Assembly (NCBI GenBank): GCA_964016885.1
Contig: OZ024745.1
Location: forward strand, 112,158,001-112,222,000
Source: Eledone cirrhosa
Lineage: Eukaryota
Reading direction: 5' to 3'
Length of the DNA stretch: 64,000 bases
Shown: piece by piece, positions 11,811 through 50,946 of the stretch
How positions within the stretch are numbered: the stretch's first letter is position 1
Layout of the letters: each line of letters begins with the position of its first letter
Made by a program: the position numbers and the translations under genes
The notes under the pieces: model-generated
The model's input: the letters and a program-made list of their open reading frames with translations, nothing else
The model's database searches: none
Told to the model about the DNA's origin: nothing

Positions 11811-13379
11811 TAAAATAATTGTTTCTACTATTGGCACAAGGTCAGCAATTATCCCAGTGTATTACTGGTATTTTATTTTATCGACCCCGTAAGGATGAAA
11901 GGCAAAGATAACCTCAGTAGGATTTGAACTCAGATCGTAAAGGGACGTAACTACGCTGGAAAGCATGTCTGACCCTCTACCAATACTGCCAATTCATCAA
12001 GTCGATTAAATCGATCCAAGCGCGTTACTGATCCTTTAGTTTTTCGACCCCCGTAAGGAGGAAAGGCAATGTTGACCACGATCGGGAATCGAACTCAGAA
12101 TGTAAAGTCCCAGAATAAATACAACAAACAACTGAAATCATCTACCCGTGTCCCACCTGACGAAATCGATTTTGCACCCCATGAAAAAGAAAAGAGAGAA
12201 AGAATTATTGTATATAGACAAATTATACATTAACATGTCATACAACATCATTCAATACCAAATATCATCGTCTTTATTCATAAAGTCCACCATCGTCGCC
12301 GTCACCATCACCATTAATATTGTCCTTATACACACCGTCGCCGTCATCATTTAACATTGTGATGTCCATTTTCCATTCTCAGTTCTGTAAATTAGCTCAT
12401 TTTCAACAGTATCTGTTCTTCTTCGTTTTACTTCCTCTCATTTCTATTCCTATTTTGGTTAGTTTGAAGAGTCCCAATCCAATGCCCGAGTTTACAGAAC
12501 ATCTTCACACTGATTTTCTCTGTTATTACCGACTTCTTTTATCATTTATTAAATCTAATTTTCCCAATTGCGATAAAGATGTACTGCATTAAATTCCTAA
12601 CATTGAACTGATAGAATTACACAAAGAACCAGAGATTTATAAACACAAAAGGGATATAATGATAATGTCAGTAAATGTTAGACTTGATTACAGAGAATCA
12701 ATATCATATAAGGCCAGGTCACGTGTCCCTTTTTTCTTTGCAGGTTTCCGTCTTTCTGCCGCATTATAGAAAAATGAAAGAGAAAAGAGTGGCCGTGCTG
12801 AGAGAGGTAGAAAAGCGAGAAAGAATGTATTATAAAGAGAAGGGGATTAGTTAGATGAATAAATGAGAGATAGAGATATAGGGAAAGAGAGTAAGAGAGA
12901 GAGAGAGAGAGAGAGAGAGAGAGAGAGAGAGAGAGAGAAAGAGAGAGAGAGAGAGAGAGAGAGAGAGAGATGTGGAAAGGGTAATTAAAAATAAGACGTA
13001 ATAAAATAATAGAGTTATAGAGATTAAGTGAATGATGGCGAGAGTTCTCTCTCTCTCTCTTGCCCTCTCTCTCTCTATATGTATATAAATATATATATAT
13101 ACATACATACATGCATAAATATATATAAATATGTGTGTGTGTATGTGTATATATATATATATATATATATATATATTCTTACTGGTAATAAGGCGGTAAA
13201 GAATTACTGACTTTCCCTGTTTATAATTATATATAGTGTATATATAAGTATAAATAATATATATATATATATATATATATATATATATATATATATATAT
13301 ATATATATATATATATATATATATATATATATATATACAATATTAAATAAATGGAAAACTATATTTATAAAACCATATT

Positions 13380-13445
13380 TATTTCATTATATATATTTCG
13401 GGGATATCATATTAACAATATGCTATGCCTTCATCAGACAAAATA
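13380..13445 (-). ncRNA. Hammerhead ribozyme, inverted copy of 13718-13783
   Basis: Reverse complement in the left arm of the 13.2-13.9 kb inverted repeat. Confidence 0.72.
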
Positions 13446-13717
13446 CAATATAAACAGTTTTATAGATAAATATATTCGACATACCATCTCTCTATTTTGT
13501 TCCATGCATTTCTTCTTTTTCTTTTTTTCTTCTTTTTCTTTTTCTTTTTCTTTTTCTTCCTTCTCTTCGTTCTGTCTTTCTTTCTTTCTTTTTTTCCCTC
13601 TTTTCTTTCTCTCTTTCTTTCTCTCTGTATTCTCACTGCTAGCGTAAACCTCTCCAAATGAAGTTGATGTTTATTACGGTATGTCGAATATATTTATCTA
13701 TAAAACTGTTTATATTG

Positions 13718-13783
13718 TATTTTGTCTGATGAAGGCATAGCATATTGTTAATATGATATCCCCGAAATATATATAATGAAATA
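13718..13783 (+). ncRNA. Minimal type I hammerhead ribozyme
   Basis: UAUUUUGU-CUGAUGA-stem II (CAUAUU/AAUAUG, GG/CC)-GAAA-uauaua-UA-AUGAAAUA. Stem I is 8 bp with two GU pairs. Confidence 0.75.
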
Positions 13784-47402: not shown

Positions 47403-49277
47403 TATTGTTATACTTTGGGAGGGTCATGTTGCCAATAAGAAACACACGCATCAGTTGCTTTCACTTCAATTTATTATAATAAATTTATAAATTTAGGAAT
47501 TTATAAATTTCCGGTTGGTTGGTTCCACAACCAGATGATTGTTTATATATTGTCAAAGTTCTTTCGTCACACATTCTGTGACCTCTTCAGTGACTGGGGA
47601 TTCTTTTCTTTGTTTTTGTGCCTCTCCTTTGTTCTGTCCTACGCCATCTTGTTTTTGTGTGTGTGTTGTGTGCTTAGTTTGCGCATGTGTTACATCCGGG
47701 TGTCTGTGTGTGTTTATATTCGTTTACTTATTTGTTTATTTACATGTTACTGGTTGGTTGTTTGTTCTATGTGCGTATGTGTGTTTTCATTTTGTCCTTA
47801 ATTGTAAGTTGTGATGTTGCTGTTCCACTCATGTTTTCTATTTAATTTTGGTTGGAGTTCATTTATGTTTATTGCCTCTGTGATTTGTCTAAACATTGCG
47901 TCTTTTCTGTGTGTAGATTCTATTTTTATTTCTATGTTCTCTAATTTACCCTTATGTTCTATTTTAGCATGTTGGTAGAGTGCAGATGATTCTTTACTAT
48001 CTTGAAGGTCTCACCAGTGTTCATTTATCCGTTCCCCTATACTACGAGCTGTCTCACCTATGTACTCTATATTTTTATTTCTACATTGTCCTTCAGTACA
48101 TCTTATGCTATATACTACATTTCTAGTTTTACAGTTAATATGGGGGCTTAATTTACAGATTATACATTTCTTATCTATACAGGGAGGTCTTTGAAAAGGG
48201 TATGTATTGCTAATAAGTGTTTTTATAGGGGTACCTGGTCTTTCTACTATCTTAATATTGAGTTTATGTTTATCTCGGGGCCTTCTAAATTTGTAAGCTA
48301 ATTCACCTCTAGGGGTTGTATCGATGAACATTACACTCTGGTATTTATTGCTATCATACCATGAGTTTATTCTATTAGCCTTATTCCTAGTTCTTTCTAT
48401 TCTATTCCAAAATTTGCTTCTATACAAGGGGCAGGTCCCATTTGTGTCATTACTTACCATTTTTTCCCATTTGGTTCTGGCTCCTCTATATACTCTGATT
48501 TTATCTCTCTGATTGTAACCAGAGAACTGCATACGGTGGATGAAGTGTTGTATGTGTCTCTCTAGTTCTTTGGGGTTGCACATGCGGGACACGTTTCTCA
48601 TCACTCGTACCAAATCCGCAATCAGTATGTTGATTTTGGTATGGTCCGAAACAGCTGAGTTTCGGTGGATCAGATATTTGGAAGTGATGGGTTTGGCATA
48701 ATGGGAATGGAGGATTTGTTTTTTGTTATTAATAGTATCTAACCAGAGCTCTGTGTCTAGTACAGGTAATCGATGGTTGGGGTGTTTGCTTGAGTAGTCT
48801 ATAGTAACTCTAATACTCTGGTGGATGGAGTTAGCTATTTTCTGGATGCGTTCCATTGTGTTTTTCTCTAATTCCTGACTGTTCTCTAGTGGGGTGTTTT
48901 TACTACGATGTTTATATCATCAATGTAGCGGGAGTACATTATCAGTGTTGAGGGGTCTTATAATTGTTCTTTAAGTTTAAGTTTAAGTCTACTGTCCCAC
49001 CATACCATAAATAGGTTAGCTATGTCGCCTGCAATGCTAACACCAATGGCTGCTCCCTCCTCTTGGGCATATGTTTTTCCATTAAATTTGAACATATGTT
49101 CCTTAAGGGTTAATTTTATGCTGGCCCCCACCGCATGGGCAATCATTTTCTTTAGTTCATCGTGGTTTTCGGGGGTCCGTATGGCTCTGGTCCACCCGTT
49201 CCATCTATCTGTGTGGGTTTTCTTGGCCATTGAGGTAATGGTAGGTGGTCTACCTCTTGCTGGTCTTGTAGGGCACG
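47403..49277 (-). mobile_element. 5'-truncated, frameshifted Penelope-like element (RT + GIY-YIG), related to the 62-64 kb element
   Basis: ORF pieces 48958-49277 (GAAIGVSIAGDIANLFMVWWD) and 48011-48856 (LPVLDTELW...NVVYSIRC...YIGETARS) are collinear with the 557 aa ORF. Both ends abut (TA)n. Confidence 0.93.
47551..47595 (-). ncRNA. Minimal type I hammerhead ribozyme in PLE 3' UTR
   Basis: Minus strand: aGUCA-CUGAAGA-g-GUCACA gaaug UGUGAC-GAAA-gaac-UU-UGAC. Confidence 0.85.
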
Positions 49278-50134
49278 CATATATATATATATATAACAAA
49301 GGAATTGTGGTAAGGAACCAGATGGACCATAACGCACCAGAGTACTCAATACTTAGGGTAGTAGAGTGGGAAATAGGAAAAACTATGACACCGACGGCAG
49401 AGCTCAAGCGGTTTCGACGGCTATTTCCGGAATTCCTAAAACAGAATTTCTTTTACAATTCTATAATTATGACAATCCCATTTACCTCTCTCCCCTATAG
49501 CAATTGTCTCTAGCTTACATTTCCTCTCTTCGCCACCCCCATCTGACCTCTTGACCAGTTCTTTAACACAATTGAGATACAAACACCTATATTCAGAAAC
49601 ATTTCCTCTCCCTAAAAATAATCTTGTTCTGTGAAAATACACTACTACTACTACTACTACTACTACTACTACTACTACTACTACTACTAGTGCTACTACT
49701 ACTACTACTACTACTACTACTACTACTACTACTACTACTACTACTACTACTACTAGTGCTACTACTACTACTACTACTACTACTACTACTACTACTACTA
49801 CTACTACTACTACTACTACTACCTCTTTCTCTCTATATAAGGTTCTATTTTAGACCCGGTTTTCTTCTTAACAAGAAAGATGAACAGACCTTCTTCAACA
49901 CTTAATTTTAAATTTTAATTTTTAATTCTTTTAAATTCTTTTTAATTGTAATATTCAACATTTGATAAGATGGATTATAGCGATACATCGAAACCGGTTA
50001 TATTTCGTATATTTTATATACATAATAAAACTCCCTTTTTTAAAAACATTGTTTCTCTCATTTTTTTCAATAATGTCACTTCGACGGATCAAAGAAGAAA
50101 AAAAGAAAAACAATCTATCTTATTTCTCATTCTT

Positions 50135-50170
50135 TCTTCTGATGAAGGACTAGCGTCCAAAACGCCAAGA
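50135..50170 (+). ncRNA. Decayed hammerhead motif
   Basis: UCUU-CUGAUGA-a GGAC uagc GUCC-aAAA-cg-cC-AAGA. A related copy on the minus strand at 51384-51419 retains GAAACGUUAAGA. Confidence 0.5.
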
Positions 50171-50946
50171 TCCTCTTCCTGCTATATCAAGCGTTAACCT
50201 AATATATCCCTTCCATATACTGTACCGATTGTGTTGTTATTTCTATTTACATTTTACACACACACACACACACATATATATATATATATACATACATATA
50301 TACATACATATATATATATATATATATATATATATATATATATATATATATATATATATATATATATATATATATATATATATATATATATACAATATAT
50401 ACACATACATATATATATACATACACACATATATATATATATATATACACAGTATATACACACACACACACATATATACATATGTATGTATGTATATATA
50501 TATATATATATATATATATATATATATTTGAAAGGGGAGTAAGGTTCTACACACACACACACACATGTATATAGAGTAGTTAGAATTAAATGAAACGAAA
50601 GAGAAAACAATACAAAGCTACAAAGAACTTGAGAATGTTCATATTGATATGTTAATTTATCGTTTGCACTTACCAAACGTGGTAGATACTACTATACTGT
50701 TTGAGATGTGATAAAAAAAAATGTGATATTTGAAATGATGGGCTTCTATTCGCTGGTTTAAAACACCTGATGCTATGTCGCTATAGCAACTGAAGATATT
50801 TGAACCGTCCAATCAATGCAGACAATACGGTGCCTCATGGCACCGTATTGTCTGCTCAAACAGAATTGCTCGATGTGTGTGTGTATGTATGTATGTATGT
50901 ATGTATGTATGTATGTATGTATGTATGTATGCATGTATGTATGTAT

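Follow-up and report, generated by a model that had tools for sequence, protein, structure and literature searches.

A 64,000-nucleotide (nt) stretch of the Eledone cirrhosa genome (assembly GCA_964016885.1, contig OZ024745.1, positions 112,158,001 to 112,222,000; hereafter the window) holds nine inverted-repeat units at TA microsatellites, several of which carry a hammerhead ribozyme (HHR) motif on each strand. Sequence comparison identifies these units as the truncated, head-to-head 3′ ends of Penelope-like elements (PLEs), and they probably represent 5′-truncated insertions into (TA)n tracts made through two fixed start sites on one RNA. The paired, opposite-strand ribozymes are likely a by-product of this insertion mechanism, and we found no support for a selected ribozyme cassette. 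The system is real, PLE-derived and ordinary for this genome.

All nine inverted repeats claimed in a first-pass annotation, which had been made from the letters alone, were recovered by self-BLAST after masking of simple repeats, at or near the starts given there. The repeats stand, and the listed sizes do not: the units are larger and asymmetric, with one arm carrying an additional 42–162-nt tail, and the supposed spacers are just the surplus length of the longer arm. The units, lettered by family, are given below with their strands (+ or −) and their self-BLAST inverted repeats (IRs) with arm identities (ORF, open reading frame; pLTR, pseudo-long terminal repeat; aa, amino acids).

13338..13825, unit A, Hydra-type PLE ends: short arm 13338–13485 on −, longer arm to 13825 on +; HHR cut sites near 13389 (−) and 13773 (+); ORF-bearing relative L199; IR 13347/13816, 139-nt arms, 100% identical
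15560..15997, unit B: tail-less arm 15560–15744 (−), tailed arm 15742–15997 (+), tail ~15900–15997; HHR cut sites near 15609 (−) and 15856 (+); 78% like A; IR 15571–15895, 97%
20900..21339, unit C: tailed arm 20900–21111 (−), tail 20900–20991, tail-less arm to 21339 (+); HHR cut sites near 21056 (−) and 21274 (+); IR 20992/21339, 96%
21341..21782, unit D: tail 21341–21398, left arm with an internal deletion, tail-less right arm 21526–21782; one HHR core at 21586 (+); pLTR the same as 47406–47650; IR 21399/21782, 100%, inner palindrome 21451–21597
21829..22049, unit E: tail of ~42 nt at the left, tail-less right end; no HHR; relatives L291 and L292 are ORF-bearing PLEs; IR 21874–22042, 93%
30487..30667, unit F: tailed left arm, tail-less right arm with the HHR core broken at the junction; IR 30585–30662, 77%
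42036..42236, unit G1, Hydra-type: tailed left arm, tail-less right arm, each with the HHR 3′ half only; IR 42121–42231, 93%
42316..43220, unit H, Hydra-type: tailed arm 42316–43071 (−), tail ~42316–42480, tail-less arm 43072–43220 (+); CCGAAGA cores at 42567 (−) and 43133 (+); intact 830-aa relative L191; IR 42485/43215, 99%
43424..43581, unit G2: tail-less left arm, tailed right arm; partial HHR; IR 43426–43497, 83%

Relatives of five units (H, A, G, E and D) run into frames with reverse transcriptase (RT) and GIY-YIG domains, three of them Hydra-type; the link covers these families and not B (the family resembling A), C or F. The H relative L191 has its intact 830-aa frame between direct repeats of 1142 nt at 99.7% identity, the A relative L199 has a 580-aa frame, the G relative L209 a broken PLE frame, and the E relatives L291 and L292 have broken RT-type frames, with direct repeats of 274 nt at 99.3% in L291. 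The right arm of D is the reverse complement of 47406–47650, which continues into RT/GIY-YIG remains at 47843–49275. The marks of an endonuclease-containing (EN+) PLE were found together: an ORF with RT and C-terminal GIY-YIG domains, direct pLTRs, and 5′ truncation with an inverted copy and a one-sided tail. Hydra-clade motifs occur in the H, A and G translations (a CxCX5C linker, and CxxC and CxH flanking E and N; DKT was checked in H only), with RWR in place of RWK and a unit length of 4.7 kb in H. The D frames at 48011–48916 and 62308–63999 have a CX4CxxC linker, which fits the Neptune/Nematis-type CX2-5CxxC before GIY-YIG; Pfam gave only a sub-threshold RVT_1 match for the D-type frame. 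Families D and E are not Hydra-type. Several unrelated PLE families do lie behind the units, as first proposed, with RT/GIY-YIG-bearing relatives both for the Hydra-type H, A and G and for D and E. Family H is young, because many H-like frames of ~830 aa are still open.

The rule of assembly emerged from a survey of 30 loci each for A, B, C, G and H (150 in total), from which nine were dropped as second matches to the same insertion and in which two with a second match >300 nt away were counted as single, leaving 108 two-armed and 33 single or long copies. Genome searches with the D pLTR or the B right arm returned no matches, probably since common words are skipped. Throughout the 108 two-armed copies the arms stand head to head with their 3′ ends outwards, and the outer ends fall at two fixed places, either the tail end or 77–89 nt (162–167 nt in H) inside it. 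A tailed arm is paired with a tail-less one in 88 of the 108; of the remainder, two units have no tail, one is tailed on both arms, and one end is unclassed in 17. If starts were chosen freely, no more than 50% of units should be mixed, and the observed share is higher. TA runs of at least 10 nt adjoin one end in 87 of the 88 mixed units and both ends in 70. By contrast with the outer ends, the inner ends vary: the tail-less arm is longer in 35 of the 88, the tailed arm in 26, and the two lie within 10 nt of each other in 27. Alignments of the arms leave a gap or overlap of −14 to +13 nt at the junction in 101 of 108 units. Junction microhomology, confounded by mismatches to the reference, reached at least 4 nt in 5 of 46 cases (2.2% under the null) and at least 2 nt in 9 of 46 (17% under the null); inserts >10 nt in this exact junction typing are artefacts. 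Inspection of D, E and F revealed the same tailed/tail-less pattern. As a separate matter, lengthening of the TA tract by the RT at the tail-less end was considered and rejected (median tracts of 29.5 versus 27.5 nt, p=0.66, n=88).

The pairing rule also held in long elements. An orientation could be assigned to 28 of 30 ORF-bearing H loci, and ten of these with an inverted arm on their 5′ side (five tail-less, five tailed) served for a prospective test, in which the far end was predicted before it was fetched. In all ten of these >4-kb elements the far end, ~4.5 kb away, was the complement of the inverted arm, five each way. Moreover, pLTR and tail run straight into the ORF in 19 of the 28 ORF-bearing H copies, and the tail is thus the stretch of RNA between two start sites.

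In families A, B, C, F, G and H, inspection by eye places the beginning of an RCTC..YGAGY hairpin stem ~8 nt beyond the tail-less site, and a strict version of the pattern matches 15 of 44 unselected tails, compared with 1.4% at random. Of the 28 ORF-bearing H copies, 22 have a second such hairpin 7 nt beyond the tail end. In 12 of 19 tail-less H ends the CT run is longer than the 4 nt that the template accounts for, reaching up to 36 nt, which fits priming there with slippage. The (CT/GA)n stutter at the priming site varies among copies (L066, L076, L084 and L336; window 43216–43226); on a side reading, it might reflect reiterative copying of the telomerase type, through which GA microsatellites would be seeded next to TA tracts.

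The two arms of an insertion resemble each other more than they resemble arms of other insertions. Divergence within and between insertions is 1.35 versus 2.76% in A, 1.47 versus 2.65% in B, 0.59 versus 1.69% in H, 6.7 versus 10.1% in C and 8.1 versus 9.3% in G. Shared polymorphic sites are concordant in 28 and discordant in 21 cases in A, 14 of the latter lying at an arm boundary and seven at one site; for B the counts are 12 and 18, with 16 of the 18 at one site. None of 216 inner ends lies within 3 nt of the HHR cut site, and the candidate explanation that HHR cleavage sets the truncation point was rejected on that count; the templates were accordingly either uncut or re-ligated. A circular template is allowed but not required, because masters with a tailed 3′ end exist.

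The geometry of the units, the RT/GIY-YIG link, the fixed outer and variable inner ends and the shared haplotype are direct observations, from which we infer the following steps. A protein dimer would nick both strands of a TA tract. One nicked end would prime at a short TA-like patch 20–66 nt 3′ of the HHR cut site, and the other would do so at the tail end, immediately ahead of the ORF. A small RCTC..YGAGY hairpin lying 7–9 nt further 3′ may position each of the two starts in Hydra-type families. Both cDNAs would then pass through the intact ribozyme, stop independently and be joined end to end by repair. On balance, we lean towards an ordered form of this two-site twin priming, in which the dimer holds one RNA at the twin hairpins and extends both (TA)n strands, each from a different one of the two sites; it would explain the inverted pLTR together with the one-sided tail, and would have written ~2 × 10^5 perfect hairpins and ~3 × 10^5 hammerhead motifs here.

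Several observations weigh against twin priming at two fixed sites. Unit A itself has two tail-less ends, one of only two such cases. The strict hairpin pattern is missed by 29 of the 44 unselected tails, D and E are without the RCTC..YGAGY motif, and the second hairpin was checked in family H only. Two-armed copies were favoured in C, F and G, whose queries included junction sequence. In G, the two arms of an insertion are scarcely more alike than randomly paired arms, and the arms often disagree at one particular site in each of A, B and G (A237, B91 and G96). We infer that these discordant sites reflect query ascertainment, because the window query carries its own allele there and the search skips common words; unselected copies were too few for an unbiased test of B91. 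One RNA molecule and two transcripts of one locus are indistinguishable in these data. Finally, the anole element studied in vitro showed no difference in start site between strands, and the strict complementarity was not reproduced there, as far as the part of PMC11167929 covered here extends.

Genome-wide, the units are abundant and associated with TA tracts. In 87 evenly spaced 10-kb stretches (870 kb) of the 3.0-Gb genome, which is assembled in 1796 contigs, we counted 93 HHR motifs, versus 1, 1 and 0 in three shuffles, which extrapolates to 3.2 × 10^5 genome-wide (bootstrap 2.0–4.7 × 10^5), two arrays supplying 26 of the 93. Of the 93 motifs, 60 have a TA tract no more than 250 nt away from the cut site in the 3′ direction, and 33 have one in the 5′ direction, against a background of 24%. 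A family-blind scan of the same sample found 90 local inverted repeats, 62 of which touch a TA tract (background 1.7%), and 44 of these 62 have a 30–200-nt one-sided extension; the estimate for fold-backs is ~2.2 × 10^5 genome-wide (1.6–2.9 × 10^5). The two scans thus bear out the TA targeting proposed by the first-pass annotation, and the special density that it had claimed for the window does not hold, as the fold-backs there are average for the genome (6 versus 4.75 expected, p=0.34). Tandem arrays of ~310 nt that invert mid-way, retrozyme-like and with the same head-to-head polarity, occur at L181:8601-9711, L221:4326-6712 and L293:2973-5140; HHR motifs were scored in those of L181 and L221.

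One HHR per strand had been reported for four units, and this is true of A, B, C and H, in which our descriptor and a listing of cores place a full type I motif (core, stem II, GAAA and UH) in both arms, the + strand copy of H having a stem I mismatch. The five other units lack two full HHRs (one core in D, the 3′ half in G1 and G2, a core broken at the junction in F, none in E). Against Rfam, the window yielded only sub-threshold microRNA matches, on hairpins and microsatellites, and nothing for hammerheads at E values of up to 1; HHR calls therefore rest on a custom type I hammerhead descriptor. The pLTR contains a canonical core in A, B, C, D and H and a partial motif in F, the family G core is of the U3–A8 or C3–A8 type, and no HHR occurs in the 600 nt upstream of the family E end. 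Complete G hammerheads, with a UUGANAA core (U3–A8 covariant) or CUGAGAA and a long stem II, were seen at L209:4882 and its mirrored copy, L126 and L181:1891. Cores of the U3–A8 type are known (PMC3088659). Because standard descriptors miss family G cores, the genome HHR counts are underestimates. Single HHR motifs of other families are present in the window at 17405–17468 (−), 18190–18242 (−) and 50132–50175 (+), the last having AAAA in place of GAAA; an inverted relative of it lies at 51304–51432.

Paired HHRs arise in a unit because the HHR is near the tail-less end, at 49–66 nt from it, and two arms longer than ~130 nt both include it. In folding models, which contain no tertiary contacts, single-arm RNAs gave pairing probabilities of 0.001–0.44 for stem I and 0.38–0.92 for stem II, whereas both stems fell below 0.001 in two-arm RNAs, on both strands and in all four units. 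The proposal that the hairpin sequesters the ribozyme is thus borne out as a folding prediction, and the ribozyme is predicted to be unfolded in read-through RNA because the antisense arm is always transcribed first. Stem III is often palindromic among the sampled motifs; minimal dimer-type HHRs with a palindromic stem III are reported to have low activity in vitro (PMC4209133). Private mutations in A, B and H copies had no A>G bias (28/12394, versus 35/15230 for T>C), and an ADAR imprint in these copies was rejected.

Taken together, two-site twin priming is the probable origin of the units, and is favoured over an unlikely snap-back origin and a still less likely functional cassette. In the self-priming or snap-back model, proposed in PMC3846280, the cDNA (or antisense RNA) folds back and copies itself, with the second arm stopping at the TA-like patch. 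Near-perfect palindromes in 27 of 88 units, small hairpin-like inserts at some junctions and the shared haplotype of the arms would suit such self-copying. However, a tail-less arm cannot template a tail that it does not have, and it is the longer one in 35 of 88 units (for example, L014, L063, L065 and L084); five >4-kb tail-less elements likewise bear a short tailed inverted arm, and L298 has a long arm without a direct tail to copy. Near-perfect palindromes are, in addition, no commoner than under independent stops (7 versus 5.0 in A, 7 versus 4.5 in B and 12 versus 12.8 in G), and rescue by later asymmetric deletions would need large and frequent ones in copies only ~1% diverged.

A ribozyme or hairpin cassette retained by the host, blocking read-through in both directions or supplying double-stranded RNA (dsRNA) for editing or small RNAs, was the reading behind the first-pass annotation, and it has become improbable. 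In its favour, any transcript of the hairpins would fold into long dsRNA, 11 of the 87 sampled regions contain HHR pairs arranged head to head and none contains tail-to-tail pairs, and two-HHR units are somewhat denser in the window (three by the same descriptor versus ~0.8 expected; p ~0.05 from a post hoc Poisson estimate by hand). Yet the head-to-head polarity is already explained by the insertion mechanism, paired HHRs are missing from five of the nine units, folding predictions leave the ribozyme unfolded in the two-arm RNA of four of four units, private mutations are as frequent for A>G as for T>C, fold-back density is average, and the copies are young and dispersed. Miniature inverted-repeat transposable elements (MITEs), that is, non-autonomous DNA transposons with terminal inverted repeats, would likewise be short, palindromic, high in copy number and in TA, and many F copies share a similar centre (a query-biased set); this origin is already contradicted by arms that continue into RT/GIY-YIG frames, by ends that differ by a tail and by inner ends that vary among copies instead of symmetric termini and uniform length, and is very improbable. 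Equally improbable are fold-back read or assembly artefacts, given that the arms differ by 0–7% in most units and that the ends are asymmetric and fixed. Same-family head-to-head junctions exist in short-read contigs of run X1, which may be the source sample of the assembly, at a depth of ~12–260; they belong to families B and D and lie at other positions than the window units, and the window's own junctions are not bridged, with at least 31 letters on both sides, by any of the contigs listed. TA-joined tail and tail-less ends appear in four of four runs from two studies, as do the TA loose ends of D at 21338 and 21397.

Further PLE sequences and other repeats surround the units. The PLE-derived features are as follows.

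13176..13257, +: tail fragment of another PLE family (J), with its 3′ end at a TA tract
47406..49275, −: family D PLE, 5′-truncated and broken, with a tail-less 3′ end at a TA tract and a pLTR that holds an HHR core at 47590
47843–49275, −: RT/GIY-YIG remains of this family D PLE
49296..49430, −: single tailed arm of family G, with another at ~35805–35946 on +
62308..63999, −: open 563-aa RT and GIY-YIG frame, D-related (63–72% aa identity), running off the window

The unit first placed at 13209 does contain an inverted repeat, and 13209–13257 itself belongs to family J. An inverted near-copy of the J fragment lies at 13872–13921, so that near-identical tail fragments flank unit A, with its two tail-less, 100% identical arms, face to face; a third copy is found near 14231. 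The J pair represents either two independent insertions or a later copying event within the palindrome. At 31165–32351 (−), a Hydra-type ORF remnant (residues ~4–314 only), intruded upon by another repeat at 31617–31801, is joined head to head to an F-type tail, pointing to a possible cryptic start site inside the ORF. The family E units of L251 and L252, on different chromosomes, have a common centre and a D-type neighbour, which suggests duplication or co-transposition. Elsewhere in the window are a dispersed ~190-nt repeat with many copies and short tandem runs (for example, 4595–5006, 9946–12115, 27463–30003 and 55553–56148), other retroelement remains at 33057–35086 and 38218–38679 (C-termini of restriction-like endonucleases, by weak Pfam matches, and a LINE-like tail), and minisatellites at 18450–20030 and 36891–37944, one with a TA-containing unit of ~25–27 nt and one in multiples of 8 nt.

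PLEs are the sister group of telomerase, and the origin of their inverted repeats and tails is named as an open question in PMC8557442. The strict pairing rule, the ten correct predictions out of ten, the twin hairpins and the young, intact 830-aa elements make the mechanism directly testable. Twin priming, if true, would be a major source of potential long dsRNA in this genome, and the counts suggest an unusually large hammerhead load. Many MITE-like or microRNA-like hairpins in such genomes may be PLE debris, which calls for caution in annotation.

Twin priming is familiar from LINE-1, in which two target ends prime on one RNA and yield an inverted segment; there, each cDNA copies a part that the other does not, and the position of the second start varies. 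Unlike those of LINE-1, both starts are fixed in the units described here, and both cDNAs copy the same stretch. The closest published counterparts are EN+ PLE insertion units (PMC8557442, Craig et al. 2021; PMC3846280, Arkhipova et al. 2013), which share the head-to-head inverted copy, the pLTR with HHR, the tail at one end, palindromic junctions and a microsatellite bias. The architecture is therefore not undescribed, as had been supposed: an inverted, 5′-truncated copy, a one-sided 30–40-bp tail, HHRs and a (TA)n bias are reported in PMC8557442, and the palindromic junctions are read as self-priming in PMC3846280. In the account given by these papers, the inversion comes from self-priming and the tail from endonuclease resolution. 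The units reported here differ in their tails of 42–162 nt, in being mostly tiny ORF-less remnants, and in their near-strict tail/tail-less complementarity, whichever arm is long. Families H, A and G match the Hydra clade of PMC8557442 in DKT (checked in H), CxCX5C, CxxC and CxH around E/N, the C-terminal GIY-YIG domain, HHRs and (TA)n, and a (TA)n preference is noted for Hydra-1_Obim in supplementary file 1 of that paper; H departs from the clade with its RWR and with its 4.7-kb unit, against generally <3 kb, the placement being by motifs.

The motifs resemble the minimal type I HHRs of PLEs and non-LTR retrozymes, which have a short, mostly palindromic stem III suited to dimers and occur in massive copy numbers (PMC4209133, PMC7229834 and bioRxiv 10.64898/2026.07.22.740005, the last of which links retrozymes and PLEs). 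Whereas non-LTR retrozymes are tandem HHR repeats of 170–400 nt, the window units are single inverted pairs. Our estimate of 2.0–4.7 × 10^5 motifs exceeds the 126,247 given for axolotl (PMC7229834), with descriptors that differ between the two. A statement of the complementarity rule, or of twin priming in PLEs, was not found in the literature covered, which lay outside subscription papers (such as older Penelope reviews), bioRxiv supplements, and Fig. 2 and the supplementary figures of PMC8557442. Mechanistically, the nearest parallel is the anole PLE PAc Poseidon (PMC11167929, Frangieh et al. 2024), a predicted dimer that in vitro cuts and extends both strands from two internal starts bounding the tail, and for which HHR cleavage is dispensable. 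The target is AT-rich in both cases, and cutting and extension of both strands from two starts would apply here on the evidence of sequence; Poseidon belongs to another clade, and the inverted arm is not derived from the two starts in the part of PMC11167929 covered. The outline of inverted arm, one-sided tail, HHR and (TA)n is thus already published, and what is new relative to print is the quantified tail/tail-less rule.

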